Position numbers and translations under genes: made by a program. A stretch of DNA of 64,000 nucleotides from an uncultured Alphaproteobacteria bacterium. Its GTDB lineage: Bacteria; Pseudomonadota; Alphaproteobacteria; HIMB59; GCA-002718135. Under the pieces are notes generated by a model. The model searched no databases. It was not told where the DNA came from and saw nothing but the letters and a program-made list of their open reading frames with translations. Positions 36,350 to 43,307 of this stretch are shown piece after piece; the stretch's first letter is position 1, and each line of letters opens with the position of its first letter. Where the stretch lies: assembly GCA_902575375.1 (NCBI GenBank), contig CACGRD010000001.1, forward strand, positions 20,691 through 84,690. Reading direction: 5' to 3'.

Positions 36350-39091
36350 ATGAATAAAAAGAGTAGATTGATACTAGTTGATGGATCAGCATACATTTTT
36401 AGAGCTTATTATGGTCTGCCTCCTATGAATCGCGCTGACGGAACCCCTATAAATGCTGTTTTTGGGTTTACTAATATGCTTGTAAAACTCATAGAAGATT
36501 ACAGTAATGACAAAATGATTGTAATTTTTGATGCTGCTAGAGAAAATTTCAGAAATAAAATTTATCCTGAATATAAAGCTAACAGAGGTGAAGCACCAGA
36601 TGATCTTATTCCTCAATTTCCACTAATCAGAGAGTGTGTAAAAAGTTTTAATATTCCTCAATTAGAAATAGAAGGATTTGAAGCTGATGATTTAATTGCT
36701 ACCTATGTTAAGTTGGCTGAAAAAGATGAAATTGAGACTATCATAGTTTCCTCAGATAAAGATTTAATGCAACTTGTTAGTAATAAAGTCACAATGCTTG
36801 ATCCAATGAAAAATAAAAAAATTGAAATAAAAGATGTTGAGGAAAAATTTGGTGTTAAACCTAATAAAGTTATTTTTATCCAAGCTTTAACAGGCGACAA
36901 AGTAGATAATATTCCGGGCGCTCCTGGAATTGGTCCAAAAACAGCTTCTCAGTTAATAAATGAATTTAAAGATATTGATGGTTTAATTAAAAATCTTGAT
37001 AAAATTAAACAAGAAAAAAGAAGAAATATTTTAGCAGAATCAGAAAATGACATTAGATTAAGTTTAAAACTTGTAACACTTAAAAACGATGTCCAAATAA
37101 CTGAGACCATTAATAGAATTAGAACTTATAATGAATTAAAAAATGAAAATAATAATATCTTTAATTTTCTTAAAGAGCAGGGCTTTAGATCAACATCTGA
37201 AAGATTAAAATCTAATTCTTTTATATCTAGTGATAATGATAATATAGTTCCAAAAAAAGAAATAAAACCAAAATATCAATTAATTAATTCAAAGAATCAT
37301 TTTGAAAAAGTTTTAAGTGAAATTAAAAAAAATGGTATTTGCGCTATAGATACTGAAACTAATTCACTCGATATAGAAAAAGCTAAATTAGTTGGTATAT
37401 CAATTTGTAGCAGTGAAAATATTTCTTATTATATTCCTATAAACCATACCAGTTTAGATGGTTCTAAAAAAATTGATAACCAGTTAGAGGAAAAATTTGT
37501 AATTAATCATATTAACAAAATATGTGAAAATGAATCTATCTTAAAAATTGGGCAAAATATAAAATATGATATTAGAATTTTAAATAAGTATGGAGTAATT
37601 TTTAATTCAATTGCAGATACAATGTTAATTTCCTATTCAATTGATAATGGAATTTTTAAACATAATTTAGATGATCTATCATTTAATCACTTAAATCATA
37701 CTACAATTAAGTATAAGGAAGTTGTTGGAACAGGGAAAAATGAAATTACTTTCGATAAAGTAACTATTGATAAAGCAATTAATTATGCTGCAGAAGATTC
37801 TCTATTAACATTCAGGCTTTTTCATCATCTTTACCCTCGTTTAATAAAAGAAAAGGCTAATTTTGTTTATCAAAATATTGATTTACCTCTTGTAGAGGTA
37901 TTATCTTCAATCGAGGCAAATGGTATTGAGGTAAATAAAGATTTTTTAACAAGCCTTAGTAATGAATTTGAGAATGAAAGTAAAAAACTTGAAAAGAATA
38001 TTTATAAACTTTCAAAAGAAGAGTTTAATATTGGCTCGCCTAAACAATTAGGAGAGATATTATTCGTTAATCTTAAAATACCTGGTGGTAAAAAAACAAA
38101 ATCAGGAACATATTCTACTGATTCATCAACTTTAAATAATTTAGCCTTAGATGGATTTGAAATTGCACAACTCGTTCTTGATTGGAGAGAATTAACAAAA
38201 CTTAAATCAACTTATACAGATGCTTTATTTAGATTAACAGATGATAAAAGTAGAGTTCATACATCATTTGGTTTAGCTAATACTTTAACAGGTCGATTAA
38301 GTTCTACAGACCCAAATCTTCAAAATATCCCAATTAGAACAGAAAATGGAAAAAAAATAAGAACAGCTTTTGTTAGTGGAAAAGGAAAAAAATTAGTCAG
38401 TTTTGATTATTCTCAAATAGAGCTTAGATTAGCCGCAGAAATTTCTAGTGATAAAAATTTTATTAAAGCTTTTAAAAACAATGAAGATATTCATGCATCA
38501 ACTGCTAAAGAAATATTTAATTTAAACGATAGTCAAATAAATAACGATTATAGAAGAAAAGCAAAAGCAATTAATTTTGGTATTTTATATGGAATTAGTC
38601 CATATGGTTTAGCTAAACAACTTGATATTTCCAATACAGAAGCAAAAGATTATATAAATGAGTATTTTATTAAATACCCAAAAATTAAAAAATATATGGA
38701 GCATCAAATTGATTTCGCAAAAACAAATCAATACGTTGAAACAATTTTTAAAAGGAAAATTAATATTAAGGGAATTGCCGATAAGAATTTTGCTGTTAGA
38801 GGTTTTGCAGAAAGACAAGCCATTAATGCACCAATCCAAGGTAGTGCAGCAGACATTATAAAGTTAGCAATGATAGAAATTCATAAGGAAATAAAACTTA
38901 AAAATATTGAGGCTGAAATGCTTTTACAAGTACATGATGAACTAATCTTTGAAGTCGAAACTAAAAAATATGACAATTTAGTAAGTAATGTAAAAAAGAT
39001 TATGGAGTCTGTACATTTAAAATACAAAGATTTTTCAGTTCCACTCACTGTTGATTTCGGTGCTGGTAATCATTGGGGACAGGCACATTAG
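36350..39091 (+). CDS. polA: DNA polymerase I
   Basis: 5'-exonuclease VDGS..FRAY/EADD, 3'-exonuclease DTET, polymerase DYSQIELR, KAINFGILYG, LQVHDEL. Confidence 0.99.
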   Translation: MNKKSRLILVDGSAYIFRAYYGLPPMNRADGTPINAVFGFTNMLVKLIEDYSNDKMIVIFDAARENFRNKIYPEYKANRGEAPDDLIPQFPLIRECVKSFNIPQLEIEGFEADDLIATYVKLAEKDEIETIIVSSDKDLMQLVSNKVTMLDPMKNKKIEIKDVEEKFGVKPNKVIFIQALTGDKVDNIPGAPGIGPKTASQLINEFKDIDGLIKNLDKIKQEKRRNILAESENDIRLSLKLVTLKNDVQITETINRIRTYNELKNENNNIFNFLKEQGFRSTSERLKSNSFISSDNDNIVPKKEIKPKYQLINSKNHFEKVLSEIKKNGICAIDTETNSLDIEKAKLVGISICSSENISYYIPINHTSLDGSKKIDNQLEEKFVINHINKICENESILKIGQNIKYDIRILNKYGVIFNSIADTMLISYSIDNGIFKHNLDDLSFNHLNHTTIKYKEVVGTGKNEITFDKVTIDKAINYAAEDSLLTFRLFHHLYPRLIKEKANFVYQNIDLPLVEVLSSIEANGIEVNKDFLTSLSNEFENESKKLEKNIYKLSKEEFNIGSPKQLGEILFVNLKIPGGKKTKSGTYSTDSSTLNNLALDGFEIAQLVLDWRELTKLKSTYTDALFRLTDDKSRVHTSFGLANTLTGRLSSTDPNLQNIPIRTENGKKIRTAFVSGKGKKLVSFDYSQIELRLAAEISSDKNFIKAFKNNEDIHASTAKEIFNLNDSQINNDYRRKAKAINFGILYGISPYGLAKQLDISNTEAKDYINEYFIKYPKIKKYMEHQIDFAKTNQYVETIFKRKINIKGIADKNFAVRGFAERQAINAPIQGSAADIIKLAMIEIHKEIKLKNIEAEMLLQVHDELIFEVETKKYDNLVSNVKKIMESVHLKYKDFSVPLTVDFGAGNHWGQAH

Positions 39092-39101
39092 AATACATTT
39101 T

Positions 39102-39230
39102 ATGGAAATAAAAAAAAAAATTAAGAAAAGAAATCCCTTTGCTCAAGATTTAAAACTACCTAAGTACAAACAAAGAATTGTTAGAAATAAGAAAACTTAC
39201 TCAAGAAAAGGAAAAAAAAAGGTTATTTAG
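39102..39230 (+). CDS. Small basic ArfA-like protein (42 aa; missing from ORF track)
   Basis: Manual translation MEIKKKIKKRNPFAQDLKLPKYKQRIVRNKKTYSRKGKKKVI*; fills the polA-grx gap; N..A..L..P.Y.QR...NKK..Y.RKGK pattern resembles the ArfA core. Confidence 0.7.
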   Translation: MEIKKKIKKRNPFAQDLKLPKYKQRIVRNKKTYSRKGKKKVI

Positions 39231-39466
39231 AATTCTTCATCAAAGGTATTCATTTCAAACCATTTTTCAAGTTCATGATACCCTCCAATTTTTTCACCAT
39301 TTAAAATTATTTGAGGAAAAGTTTTAGCGTTCGGAAACTTTTCAAAAAAATCTTCTCTCGTATAATCTGTATCAAGCATATAAATCTTTGGATTAAATTT
39401 AGCTAACCGTAGTTTAGCTCTATCACAGTATCCACAATTAGTTTTAGAGTATATCTCTGCTTCCAT
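39227..39466 (-). CDS. Dithiol glutaredoxin associated with RNR
   Basis: CGYC, TFPQI, IGGY; ATG 39466 in TGATG overlap with the nrdB stop (track uses TTG 39469). Confidence 0.9.
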   Translation of the reverse strand: MEAEIYSKTNCGYCDRAKLRLAKFNPKIYMLDTDYTREDFFEKFPNAKTFPQIILNGEKIGGYHELEKWFEMNTFDEEF

Positions 39467-40455
39467 CAAAATGCTTCATCAAAACTTAAAGCTCTATCTG
39501 TAGGTCGTTGATATTCAGATACCCTTTTTTCAAAAAAGTTAGTAACATTTTGTACATCTAAAGCTCTCATAAAATCAAAAGGATTTTCTGTTTTAAAGAC
39601 TCTGTCAAATTCAAATAGGTCAGCAATTCTGTCTGCAACAGCTTCAATATATTGACACATTAAGTCTTGATTCATACCAATTAAATCTACTGGTAAAGCA
39701 TCTCTTACAAATTCTTTTTCGAATGCTACTGCTTCTCTAACAATTTCTTCAAATTGTGATTGAGGCACATCTGAGGGTATCAAAGACAAATCACTAATAT
39801 CTGCATCAGTTAATGTTTTATTATTAAATTTATCTCTTAAAGTTCTAAACATAAGAGATGAGAAACTAAAATGCATTCCTTCGTCTCTTGCAATCCAGTC
39901 GTTAGATAAGGCTAAACCAGGTAATAACCCTCTTTTTCTGAAATAATATATTGCACAGAAAGAGCCAGCAAAAAATAAACCTTCAACTAATCCAAATCCT
40001 ATTAGTCTTGTTAATAAATTTTGACTACCATTGAGCCATTTTGATACCCATTGTGCTTTATGGTTAATACATGGTACGTTTTGTATTGCATCAAAAAGCA
40101 TGTCTTTTTCTTTTGCATCTTTTACATAAGCTTCAATTTGTAGACCATACATCTCTGCATGAATTGATTCATTCAACATTTGTATAGATATAAAACATCT
40201 TGCTTCAGGAATTAAAATTTCTTTGTAGAACCTACTTGCTAAGTTTTCATTAATCATTGCTTCGGAGTTAGCAAAATATGCAAGTACGTGCTTAATAAAA
40301 TGCTTTTCACCATCATTTAAAGTTTCAAGATCTCTTAAATCATCTTGCAAAGATACTTCTTCAGTTGTCCAAAAGGCTTGTATATGTTGTTTGTATCTAT
40401 CCCAAATTTCTTGGTTTTTTATTGGAAATATTGATTTAACTCCTTTTGATATCAT
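39466..40455 (-). CDS. nrdB: Class I ribonucleotide reductase beta subunit (eukaryote-like, first ligand Glu)
   Basis: FWT, ESIHAEMY, VEGLFF, RDEGMH, NFFEKRVSEY, terminal F. Confidence 0.96.
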   Translation of the reverse strand: MISKGVKSIFPIKNQEIWDRYKQHIQAFWTTEEVSLQDDLRDLETLNDGEKHFIKHVLAYFANSEAMINENLASRFYKEILIPEARCFISIQMLNESIHAEMYGLQIEAYVKDAKEKDMLFDAIQNVPCINHKAQWVSKWLNGSQNLLTRLIGFGLVEGLFFAGSFCAIYYFRKRGLLPGLALSNDWIARDEGMHFSFSSLMFRTLRDKFNNKTLTDADISDLSLIPSDVPQSQFEEIVREAVAFEKEFVRDALPVDLIGMNQDLMCQYIEAVADRIADLFEFDRVFKTENPFDFMRALDVQNVTNFFEKRVSEYQRPTDRALSFDEAF

Positions 40456-40469
40456 TCTTTACTCCTTCT

Positions 40470-43223
40470 TTATGCACTGCAAGTTTCGCAATCTTCTGGT
40501 TCATTGTTTTGTTTAATAGCAGTATTTATATAAGCATCTTTTGCTGCTTTTTCTGATGAAACTGTAACTTTTACAGCATCAACTGCTGATCTACTTCTGA
40601 GATAATACATTCCTGTTTTAAGACCTTTTTTCCAAGCATACATATGCATTGAATTAACTTTCCCAAATGTAGGCGTTGAAAGCCAAAGATTCATTGATTG
40701 GGTTTGATCAATAAATGGTGCTCTATCTGCTGACATATCTATGACAGTTTTTTGTGATACTTCCCAAACTGTTTTATAAACTTCTTTAAGTTCAGTTGGA
40801 ATTTCATTTATGTTTTCAACAGACCCATTTTCTAAAATTATTTTGTCTCTCATATCTTTATTCCACAGTCCTCTTTGAGAAAGTTCATTCACCAAATATC
40901 TATTTACAAGAAGGAACTCACCTGAGAGCGTTTGTCTTTTATATATATTAGAGGTTTGTATTTGGAATGTTTCAGTGTTACCTAATATAATGCCTGTTGA
41001 CGCAGTTGGCATACAAGCTGTGGTTAAAGAGTTTCTCACACCGTGCTCTTTAATTTTAGTTCTTAGCGAATCCCAATCCCATTTTGAAGACGGGTTAACA
41101 TTCCACAGATCAAATTGAAATTTACCTTCCGAAATTGGTGAATTTTTAAATGTTTCGTATGTTCCCTTTTCTTTTGCTAATTCACATGAAGCTTCTAAAG
41201 CTCCAAAGTAAATTGTTTCAAAAATTAATTTATTTATTTCTTTAGCCTCTTCAGAGTCATAAGCTATTCCTAACTTGAAGTAGACATCTGCAAGACCCTG
41301 TATTCCTAAACCTATTGGTCTGTGTTTATTATTAGATCTTTCCGTTTTATCAGTTGGATAAAAATTAATATCAATTACTTCATCTAAGTTTTTTGTGGCC
41401 AATTTTGCTGTTTCATAAAGAGCATCATAGTCATATATTAATTTTTTATCTGATTTTTTTACAAATTTTGGCAGAGCTATAGAAGCCAAGTTACATACAG
41501 ATGTCTCGTTCTTATCAGAGTATTCAACTATTTCTGCACACAGGTTTGAAGATTTAATAACACCAATATTTTTTTGGTTGGACTTGTTATTGATTGAGTC
41601 CTTATAGAGCATATAAGGCTGTCCTGTTTCTATCTGCGCTTCTATAATTTTAGACATTAGATCTCTTGCTTTAATTTTTTCTAAATGCTTCATTTCATTT
41701 TCATACTTAGTGTAAAGTTTTTCAAACTCGTCACCATATACATCTGAAAGACCCGGACATTCATGTTCACTCATAAGTGTCCATTCTTCATCATTTTCTA
41801 CTCTTTTCATGAATAAATCAGGTATCCATAAAGCATAAAACAAATCTCTCGCTCTAAATTCTTCGGCACCCGTATTTTTTCTAAGTTCTAGAAATTTCTC
41901 AATGTCAGCATGCCAAGGTTCTAAGTAAACTGCGAAAGAACCTTTTCTTTTTCCTCCACCTTGATCAACTGATTTAGCAGTTTCATTAAAAATTTTAAGA
42001 AATGGAATAAGACCATTAGATTTACCATTTGTTGATTTTATTCTACTTCCGCTTCCTCTAATGTTGTGAGCATGCATTCCGATACCGCCAGCAGTTTTTG
42101 ATATTAGCGCACAATCTTTGATAGTATTAAAAATACCTTCAATAGAATCATCTTCCATACCTATTAAAAAGCATGATGATAATTGCTGCATCTTTAATCC
42201 ACTATTAAACAATGTTGGAGTAGCATGTGTATACATACCACTAGATAGACTTTTATAGGTTTCTTTTATTTTATCTAAATTAAACTCGTTGCCTGTAACT
42301 GTTAAAGTTACTCTCATCCATAGGTCCTGAGGTCTTTCAATTGTTCTATTATCAAACTTTAACAAATAAGCTCTAATTAGTGTTGTAAGGGCAAAATAAT
42401 CAAATGTATAATCTTTGTCATAATCAATTATTGATTCTATTGCGCCAGCATTTTCCATCACTTTTTTAAAATACTCTTCTCTTAATAAACCATCATCGTA
42501 TAAATTTTTTGTTGCTATTATAAAACCTGGGGTTTCTTTATGTAATGAATTAACTTTTATTCTTGCGGCAAGATATGAATAATCAGGATGCTCTACTGTT
42601 AAAGCTGCTGCAGTTTCAGCAAGATAAGTGTCAATTTCAACAGAACTAATATCACTATACAATCCTGGAACTGCTTTTTGAACAACGACAATTGGATCAA
42701 TATTTAATCCAGTTGATAGAACTGAGACTCTGTTGGTTATTTTATCCAGTGAAATCGGCTCTTTACTTCCATCTCTTTTAGTTACCATCATTGAAGAAGC
42801 TTTTTCTCCAACTTGCTCTTTGAGTTTTTTAGTGTGATATCTAGAAGCTGCTCTTTGTTCTCTATATAGGACATATGCTCTAGCAACTTTATGATGCTCA
42901 TCTCTCATAAGTGCTAATTCCACTTGATCTTGTATATCTTCAATGTGAATCATGTCACCATCAGCAATCCTTCTTGTTAGAGCCGAGACAACTTTATGTG
43001 TTAAAGCTTCAACAGTTTTATGAATTCCATCTTGTTGTTCTTTTTCTTTATTTTTGTCATTTCTAATTTTTGTTTGTGCTAAGAATGCTTTTTTTATAGC
43101 ATTTGAAATTTTATCTGATTTGAAGGGAGTGATAGCTCCATCACGACGTACCACACTTAATGTTAAAATATTTACACTTTTTTCTTCCGGGATTTTTGCC
43201 GATACCTGTAGAATGTCTGCCAT
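40470..43223 (-). CDS. nrdA: Class I ribonucleotide reductase alpha subunit with two ATP cones
   Basis: ATPTLFNSG, LSSCF, SNLCAEI, VCNLAS, GMYYLR, C-terminal CETC; cones start VVRRDG and VTKRDG. Confidence 0.97.
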   Translation of the reverse strand: MADILQVSAKIPEEKSVNILTLSVVRRDGAITPFKSDKISNAIKKAFLAQTKIRNDKNKEKEQQDGIHKTVEALTHKVVSALTRRIADGDMIHIEDIQDQVELALMRDEHHKVARAYVLYREQRAASRYHTKKLKEQVGEKASSMMVTKRDGSKEPISLDKITNRVSVLSTGLNIDPIVVVQKAVPGLYSDISSVEIDTYLAETAAALTVEHPDYSYLAARIKVNSLHKETPGFIIATKNLYDDGLLREEYFKKVMENAGAIESIIDYDKDYTFDYFALTTLIRAYLLKFDNRTIERPQDLWMRVTLTVTGNEFNLDKIKETYKSLSSGMYTHATPTLFNSGLKMQQLSSCFLIGMEDDSIEGIFNTIKDCALISKTAGGIGMHAHNIRGSGSRIKSTNGKSNGLIPFLKIFNETAKSVDQGGGKRKGSFAVYLEPWHADIEKFLELRKNTGAEEFRARDLFYALWIPDLFMKRVENDEEWTLMSEHECPGLSDVYGDEFEKLYTKYENEMKHLEKIKARDLMSKIIEAQIETGQPYMLYKDSINNKSNQKNIGVIKSSNLCAEIVEYSDKNETSVCNLASIALPKFVKKSDKKLIYDYDALYETAKLATKNLDEVIDINFYPTDKTERSNNKHRPIGLGIQGLADVYFKLGIAYDSEEAKEINKLIFETIYFGALEASCELAKEKGTYETFKNSPISEGKFQFDLWNVNPSSKWDWDSLRTKIKEHGVRNSLTTACMPTASTGIILGNTETFQIQTSNIYKRQTLSGEFLLVNRYLVNELSQRGLWNKDMRDKIILENGSVENINEIPTELKEVYKTVWEVSQKTVIDMSADRAPFIDQTQSMNLWLSTPTFGKVNSMHMYAWKKGLKTGMYYLRSRSAVDAVKVTVSSEKAAKDAYINTAIKQNNEPEDCETCSA

Positions 43224-43261: not shown

Positions 43262-43307
43262 ACACAATATGTAGTGCCGCCGAAAAGGGACAATACAACA
43301 TTTGCTC
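43262..43307. promoter_or_regulatory. NrdR box(es) upstream of nrdA
   Basis: ACACAATATGTAGTG (43262-43276) fits consensus acaCwAtATaTwGtg; weaker second copy ATACAACATTTGCTC 31 nt away (43293-43307). Confidence 0.75.

Follow-up and report, generated by a model that had tools for sequence, protein, structure and literature searches.

The 64,000-nucleotide stretch analysed here (the window; assembly GCA_902575375.1, contig CACGRD010000001.1), from an uncultured alphaproteobacterium of the HIMB59 lineage, carries on its minus strand a three-gene operon for a class I ribonucleotide reductase (RNR), in the order nrdA, nrdB and a glutaredoxin-like gene. The nrdB gene (39466..40455) encodes a β subunit of 329 residues (P0001) that falls within the class I β-subunit family PF00268 (9e-89; 298 bits against a cut-off of 33.6). 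The nrdA gene (40470..43223) adjoins it 14 nt upstream, as befits a class I β subunit, and encodes an α subunit of 917 residues that matches PF02867 (2.9e-215), PF00317, PF03477, the last in two ATP-cone stretches, and TIGR02506 (723 bits, cut-off 341). The third gene (39227..39469; 80 residues, CGYC motif, PF00462 at 1.2e-08) overlaps the nrdB stop codon, and its co-transcribed, glutaredoxin-like product would re-reduce NrdA. An earlier note on this DNA had pointed to a glutamate in place of the aspartate that serves as the first metal ligand in eukaryote-like NrdB, and had proposed a possible manganese-containing cofactor in an iron-limited marine organism. Our analysis places the protein in a clade within eukaryote-like NrdB, here termed E-type, which at the level of sequence is defined by the six-position signature E65, M67, I68, I/L89, A163 and Y171, and which we regard as a candidate new class I subclass.

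Residue 65 of P0001 is a glutamate (codon GAA, 40261..40263, minus strand, as for all codons below) inside HVLAYFANSEAMINENL. In a phmmer comparison with PDB sequences it aligns to the aspartate of FAASDGIVNENL (FAASD; mouse R2, 1h0n chain residue 139; E = 1.5e-90), and this alignment runs free of gaps over query residues 9-112. Human, Plasmodium and yeast R2 are the next best PDB matches, and identity to eukaryotic R2 is 44-45%. The AlphaFold2 model of P0001 (mean predicted local distance difference test score, pLDDT, 87.4) finds human RRM2 as its top Foldseek match, with a target template-modelling (TM) score of 0.92 and a root-mean-square deviation (rmsd) of 1.5 Å, in agreement with the eukaryote-like scaffold that the earlier note had described. 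The other five ligands are intact, as read from the alignments, with coordinates from Glu158 onward computed from the start of the open reading frame (ORF). They are Glu96 and His99, the E-x-x-H pair of helix C (40159..40170), Glu158 in VEGLFF (39982..39984), and Glu192 and His195, the second E-x-x-H pair, in RDEGMH together with the conserved Asp191 (39871..39885). Tyr103 (TAT, 40147..40149), inside NESIHAEMY, holds the radical-site position. The second sphere of class Ia is kept as well, in Trp29, Phe162, Phe166, Ile188, Asp191 and the C-terminal Tyr315. There is no lysine near Glu65; Asn69 stands at +4 and does not vary across 121 sequences compared. On the glutamate, the radical tyrosine, the intact VEGLFF and DEGMH motifs and the missing lysine, the reading given in the earlier note was correct.

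The exchanged ligand does not stand alone. It is followed by Ala66-Met67-Ile68 (40252..40260), where Asp-type relatives have G-I-V. Farther along, Ile89 (40189..40191) replaces a tyrosine present in 96.5% of 339 Asp-type sequences, Ala163 (39967..39969) a residue that is serine in 95% of them, and Tyr171 (39943..39945) one that is tryptophan in 94%. When 141 SAR11-type sequences were compared position by position with the 339 Asp-type sequences, 21 positions were conserved to at least 99% in the Asp-type set, and D65E was the only one to differ in SAR11; at the level of at least 95% (48 positions) D65E, Y89I and S163A differ, and the 90% level adds V68I, W171Y, A199S, L281F and K304V. G66A and I67M flank the ligand in the SAR11-type proteins. 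Ile89 sits on helix C 14 residues before the radical-site tyrosine, the same spacing as that of human Tyr162, a second helix-C tyrosine that a passage of the review PMC10425756 terms essential. The same passage describes a hydrogen-bond network that connects the tyrosine with the iron cluster via a glutamine; this glutamine (Gln92) is retained in E-type NrdB, and the tyrosine at position 89 is lost. From the helix positions we infer that the signature residues line site 1.

Both states of the ligand column are held with great consistency. Glutamate occupies position 65 in all 121 sequences of a set made up of the query and its 120 closest metagenome proteins (87-93% identity). The same holds for 51 of 51 loci in a set of 50 genomes, which represent two families of the order, with one further genome that is from another order and shows 80% identity. 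Of these 50 genomes, 32 use GAA, 18 use GAG and none has an aspartate codon, so the amino acid was held while synonymous change occurred; judged from this codon turnover, purifying selection acts on Glu65. Aspartate is found in 146 of the best 150 representatives at 50% identity. Of the other four, P0255, P0267 and a fragment from SAR11 carry glutamate, and the last is a fragment that does not reach the column. Aspartate is likewise found in all 74 viral-contig relatives that cover the site (75 were fetched), in 120 of 120 bacterial relatives of P0134, which include proteins named from Bacteroidota and from a burkholderial genus, and in 104 of 113 relatives of P0255, the other nine being E-type. 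P0267 is the single case among the Asp-type sequences examined in which the aspartate is replaced.

That the glutamate is specific to SAR11 was our initial view, and it was overturned once the search seeded with P0255 returned a group from Vibrio and Ichthyobacterium. The nine E-type proteins of that search, 310 or 328 residues long, include those of Vibrio harveyi, V. tapetis, Photobacterium damselae and Ichthyobacterium seriolicida. Their sequences contain the stretches FAQSEGMINENLL and RCFLALQ..NEVIHAETY, and they share Glu65, Ile68, Leu89 and Tyr171; Met67 and Ala163 are present in eight of the nine, with Leu67 and Ser163 in P0404. We then scanned the V. harveyi protein against one genome per species and kept 80 loci. 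Among them, 16 are from Vibrionaceae (87-100% identity to the V. harveyi protein) and one is from an Ichthyobacteriaceae metagenome-assembled genome (MAG; 73%). MAGs titled Hyphomicrobiales, OCS116 or Alphaproteobacteria follow at 63-64%, and records titled Pelagibacteraceae, HIMB59 or uncultured Alphaproteobacteria at 61-63%. All six signature residues are present in 80 of 80 loci, which come in two variants, an alphaproteobacterial one with Ala66, Ile89 and Val304 (63 loci and P0001) and another with Gly66, Leu89 and Lys304 (17 loci). By this signature, the members of the clade are SAR11-like and other marine alphaproteobacteria, Ichthyobacteriaceae and Vibrionaceae. P0001 itself has 61% identity with the E-type protein of V. 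harveyi, and with no full-length Asp-type representative does the value exceed 51%.

A tree inferred with IQ-TREE in its "quick" mode from 69 rows gathers the Glu-bearing rows into one group, with a support of 86 for 19 rows in the Shimodaira–Hasegawa-like approximate likelihood ratio test (SH-aLRT) and of 87 when P0255 is included; these values are moderate for the group as a whole, and the alignment behind them included the signature columns. Within it, the alphaproteobacterial subclade has an SH-aLRT of 100 and the Vibrionaceae/Ichthyobacteriaceae subclade one of 96. Two cluster representatives at 50% identity were considered as signs of a recurrent switch and set aside. P0267 (493 residues) groups with Asp-type rows and has retained Tyr89, Ser163 and Trp171, so that it is a separate singleton whose glutamate is an independent change. 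P0255 (302 residues), on a very long branch next to the E-type clade, has E65, I68, A163 and Y171 together with Tyr89. The stem of the SAR11 clade measures 0.55 changes per site (FastTree). Among 251 evenly drawn alphaproteobacterial genomes, just four have this type of NrdB at E≤1e-40, and such patchy occurrence suggests that it spread horizontally.

Two further observations concern the proteins themselves. In the SAR11-type NrdB, helix F is followed by 19 inserted residues (208-226, window about 39778-39834; KFNNKTLTDADISDLSLIP...), which neither the E-type protein of V. harveyi nor eukaryotic R2 contains. None of the NCBIfam equivalog models for NrdB matches P0001 at its curated cut-off (the best, NF005550, gives 160.5 bits against 309), and the E-type clade has no dedicated annotation model in NCBIfam.

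How much depends on this enzyme in the cell? The genome of the window (G000, 66% complete) has one NrdB match and one NrdA match, and NrdI (PF07972) gave no match in it at that completeness. Five related SAR11-type genomes, 94-100% complete, have exactly one NrdA-family and one NrdB-family match each, and class III RNR gave no match in any of the five. The E-type NrdB is the sole RNR radical generator in these five near-complete genomes. The synthesis of DNA precursors there has no other source of the radical, and the protein must be functional.

The vibrios have a different complement. V. harveyi and V. tapetis encode two NrdB proteins each, one E-type and one canonical (a 379-codon open frame), and the Ichthyobacteriaceae MAG and two alphaproteobacterial chromosomes have the E-type protein only. 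In V. harveyi the E-type gene lies on a record titled chromosome 2, in a locus that retains the order nrdA, nrdB, glutaredoxin-like gene; a PF00462 match stands 3' of nrdB in both V. harveyi and V. tapetis. A Fur-box-like site (L131, 5612-5630) with three mismatches to the 19-bp consensus precedes the start of the E-type nrdA in V. harveyi by about 60 nt; none of 200 shuffles of the 16.9-kb locus contains a match as good. Within 600 nt upstream, such a site at four mismatches or fewer is found in 15 of 15 assessable Vibrionaceae loci, where shuffling leads one to expect 0.07 loci; the sixteenth locus has too little upstream sequence and was left out. The site stays beside nrdA although the gene upstream of it differs, encoding a rhodanese-like protein in V. 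harveyi and a patatin-like one in V. tapetis. No such site was found 5' of the canonical nrdA in 3 kb of V. harveyi sequence, even at five mismatches; the corresponding control in V. tapetis spans only 221 nt. The alphaproteobacterial and Ichthyobacteriaceae loci have none in 58 assessable cases (0.64 expected), and the checked genomes of those lineages contain no RNR besides the E-type. In V. tapetis the E-type operon is placed between a catalase gene and a sufA-sufBCDS cluster (L143, 2699-4156 and 9295-14463); the suf cluster has its own predicted, near-consensus Fur box (one to two mismatches) at about 9306, and a similarly strong box occurs at the same place in L146. The vibrio E-type operon thus looks to be a second aerobic RNR behind a putative Fur box, beside a canonical class Ia enzyme that has none. 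The link to iron limitation made in the earlier note is thereby supported independently, with Fur-box-like sites preceding the same type of enzyme in Vibrionaceae.

This arrangement resembles NrdEF, the class Ib enzyme of Escherichia coli, a Fur-repressed, manganese-dependent backup RNR whose operon also includes a small redoxin gene. According to section 5 of PMC8463856, the E. coli enzyme is expressed only upon Fur derepression, has manganese as its only metal when obtained from cells deficient in iron uptake, and keeps replication going at low iron. P0001 is not an NrdF (TIGR04171, 60.9 bits against a cut-off of 355), NrdI was not found in the genome of the window, and the first ligand is glutamate in E-type NrdB and aspartate in class Ib.

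In a rough scan, a small CxxC ORF was found 3' of nrdB in 73 of the 80 E-type loci and none directly after it in the other seven (L148, L150, L152, L153, L154, L157 and L166), which are from MAGs titled Hyphomicrobiales or OCS116 and from one alphaproteobacterial chromosome. In the window, two AT-rich, palindrome-like elements, cactacatattgtg and caaatgttgtattg, lie 5' of nrdA on the minus strand (43263-43276 and about 43291-43304). They may be NrdR boxes, which they resemble; an NrdR gene (TIGR00244, above cut-off) is present in the genome of the window and in two related genomes. A DNA polymerase I-like ORF of 913 residues (36350-39091, plus strand) converges on the end of the operon and looks ordinary.

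Where does the E-type NrdB stand among the known R2 groups? Its closest relatives are eukaryotic and viral R2s and their bacterial kin, which makes it a eukaryote-like NrdB, presumably the group that RNRdb calls NrdBn. With class Ia R2 of eukaryotes (mouse R2, human RRM2 and p53R2, yeast Rnr2) it has in common the ferritin-like fold, the sequence, five of six ligands, the radical-site tyrosine with its hydrophobic Phe/Phe/Ile pocket, the Trp and Asp residues of radical transfer and the C-terminal tyrosine, and its partner NrdA likewise carries ATP-cones, as in the operon of the window. It departs from class Ia in the glutamate at the first ligand, in the isoleucine or leucine in place of the second helix-C tyrosine, in Ala163 and Tyr171 and, for the SAR11 form, in the insertion. 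Section 9 of PMC8463856 treats NrdB proteins of the eukaryote/viral cluster as Ia-like and largely unexplored.

Class Ic (R2c of Chlamydia trachomatis, with a Mn(IV)/Fe(III) cofactor) has the glutamate and a phenylalanine at the site of the radical tyrosine, where the E-type protein keeps Tyr103, and identity to it is 22-24% (E about 1e-29). Class Id (NrdBi of F. johnsoniae, L. blandensis and F. ignava; Mn2(III/IV)) combines glutamate with tyrosine, as does the E-type (Glu65 and Tyr103), and this pairing is the feature that first set class Id apart (PMC8463856). Section 7 of PMC6754362 derives NrdBi from the Asp-type NrdBk by an Asp-to-Glu exchange and the replacement of a strictly conserved tyrosine, describes a lysine gained later and in one subgroup only, and gives a tryptophan at +7 from the glutamate as strictly conserved. 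There is a parallel, in that both arose from an Asp-type ancestor by gain of the glutamate with loss of a conserved tyrosine near helix B/C, and in that NrdI was not found, for the E-type in the genome of the window only. There are also differences: E-type NrdB has Asn69 at +4 instead of lysine, Leu72 at +7 instead of tryptophan, and Asp191 instead of the threonine before the fifth ligand that sequesters the tyrosine in class Id, according to PMC8463856. NrdAi is described without an ATP-cone in PMC6370689, and the E-type's NrdA carries two; kinship to class Id is also missing, with no class Id chain among the 50 PDB sequences that P0001 matched at E≤1e-5. The switch is accordingly independent of those in classes Ic and Id, as the earlier note had supposed. 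The two remaining groups are readily told apart from it, since class Ie (metal-free, with a DOPA radical) has three of six ligands replaced and the six positions here are all Glu or His, and since R2lox (NF006200, 39.9 bits against 194) does not match and the C-terminal Tyr315, which R2lox lacks, is present.

What metal would such a site bind? We favour an iron-sparing cofactor with manganese in site 1, either Mn2 or Mn/Fe, that evolved independently, and consider this an even call. The proposed sequence of events is as follows. Replacement of the aspartate by glutamate, together with the changes from Ile to Met67, Val to Ile68, Tyr to Ile/Leu89, Ser to Ala163 and Trp to Tyr171, would have remodelled site 1 so that it binds manganese, and iron would be spared. 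In vibrios the E-type enzyme would act as a backup during iron starvation, and in SAR11 and other marine lineages it would be constitutive, as the only RNR; Tyr103 would be kept as the radical carrier or, as in class Id, as a residue of radical transfer. We favour manganese at site 1 because the vibrio layout matches that of E. coli class Ib, because the characterised natural R2 groups with glutamate at this site that the cited sources name use manganese (classes Ic and Id in PMC8463856, R2c and R2lox in PMC3824934), because the manganese of class Ic sits in site 1 (PMC8463856), and because the lineages with only the E-type are mostly marine. The larger proposal, that the E-type is a new class I subclass with a manganese-containing Glu/Tyr cofactor independent of Ic and Id, derepressed through Fur as an iron-starvation RNR in vibrios and serving SAR11 as its sole RNR, is put forward tentatively, at a little short of even. 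The evidence would fit alike an Id-like metal-centred oxidant, an Ib-like Mn2 centre with a tyrosyl radical, and a Mn/Fe cofactor.

Several points weigh against manganese. The intact second sphere of class Ia would suit an ordinary tyrosyl radical, and the hallmarks of class Id (Lys at +4, Trp at +7, Thr before the fifth ligand) are absent. The engineered D84E variant of E. coli R2, which introduces the same single ligand change into a tyrosyl-radical R2, reportedly shows that glutamate is compatible with diiron chemistry: it is said to stay diiron and still to form its tyrosyl radical, via a longer-lived peroxo intermediate. It was engineered by point mutation in a distant subclass and lacks the five co-substitutions that accompany the glutamate in nature. 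Diiron enzymes of the ferritin-like superfamily also use glutamate at this position. Fur binding and iron regulation of the vibrio operon are predictions, the 15 vibrio loci are kin to one another, and a Fur-controlled diiron isozyme of higher iron affinity would fit the same vibrio data. Nramp was not found in four genomes, and SAR11 genomes are reported in PMC4771312 to be without dedicated manganese transporters. Other metal-handling genes do not discriminate, with a ZnuA-type binding protein in three of four genomes and a superoxide dismutase of the Fe/Mn type in four of four. The earlier interpretation holds in part: the switch is independent, and it is not peculiar to SAR11, belonging instead to a wider clade with five co-substitutions in which the glutamate alone does not decide for manganese.

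Among the alternatives, the one to be taken seriously, which we consider less probable, is a diiron-tyrosyl enzyme with class Ia chemistry, in which glutamate stands in for aspartate, the exchanges adjust O2 activation, iron affinity or the lifetime of the radical with the metal unchanged, and the vibrio Fur control marks an iron isozyme of high affinity or stress tolerance. It draws on the nearest solved structures, all diiron eukaryotic R2s, on the retention of Tyr103, the Phe162/Phe166/Ile188 pocket, Trp29, Asp191 and Tyr315, on the D84E variant, reportedly radical-forming, and on the reported lack of dedicated manganese uptake in SAR11 and of a detectable NrdI in the 66% complete genome; against it, it would be an unusual layout to keep an iron enzyme under a Fur box when the canonical iron enzyme next to it lacks one, the characterised natural R2 groups with glutamate that are named in the sources cited above use manganese, and the strictness with which aspartate is kept on one side and glutamate on the other speaks for a functional difference. 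A functionally neutral exchange fixed by drift would be easier to entertain given the chemical likeness of the two residues and the long SAR11 stem, and we consider it very improbable: D65E is the sole change among the 21 near-invariant positions, Asp and Glu codons differ by one base and yet more than 200 E-type sequences have all retained the glutamate in spite of GAA/GAG turnover, aspartate is replaced in a single Asp-type sequence (P0267), and the ligand co-varies with five other positions in two divergent subclades. We give practically no credence to an alignment artefact or sequencing error that would leave Glu65 outside site 1, a possibility that the earlier note had itself raised, since the gap-free alignment to mouse R2 is joined by recovery of the same ligand column in MAFFT alignments of 151, 361 and 480 sequences, since the model superimposes on human RRM2, and since the residue is invariant across independent assemblies.

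A literature search retrieved no description of this ligand set in SAR11 or vibrios; figures, RNRdb and most subscription journals lay outside the search, so it may have been noticed before, and Id-like motifs in the eukaryote/viral cluster could already be visible in Figure 9 of PMC8463856 and in the RNRdb trees. The finding points to a previously unremarked second RNR in vibrios with a predicted link to Fur, and the six-residue signature offers a simple marker for scoring metagenomes. Should the enzyme prove to be diiron, it would represent a natural tyrosyl-radical R2 of the D84E type with compensating second-sphere changes. A third independent route from aspartate and diiron to glutamate and manganese would help to define what selects the metal in the ferritin-like superfamily. 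RNR is essential and makes a major demand on trace metals. If the one RNR of SAR11 does use manganese, the most abundant marine heterotrophs would make their DNA without drawing on iron for the radical cofactor, and iron quotas and models of iron limitation for these dominant heterotrophs of the ocean would change.

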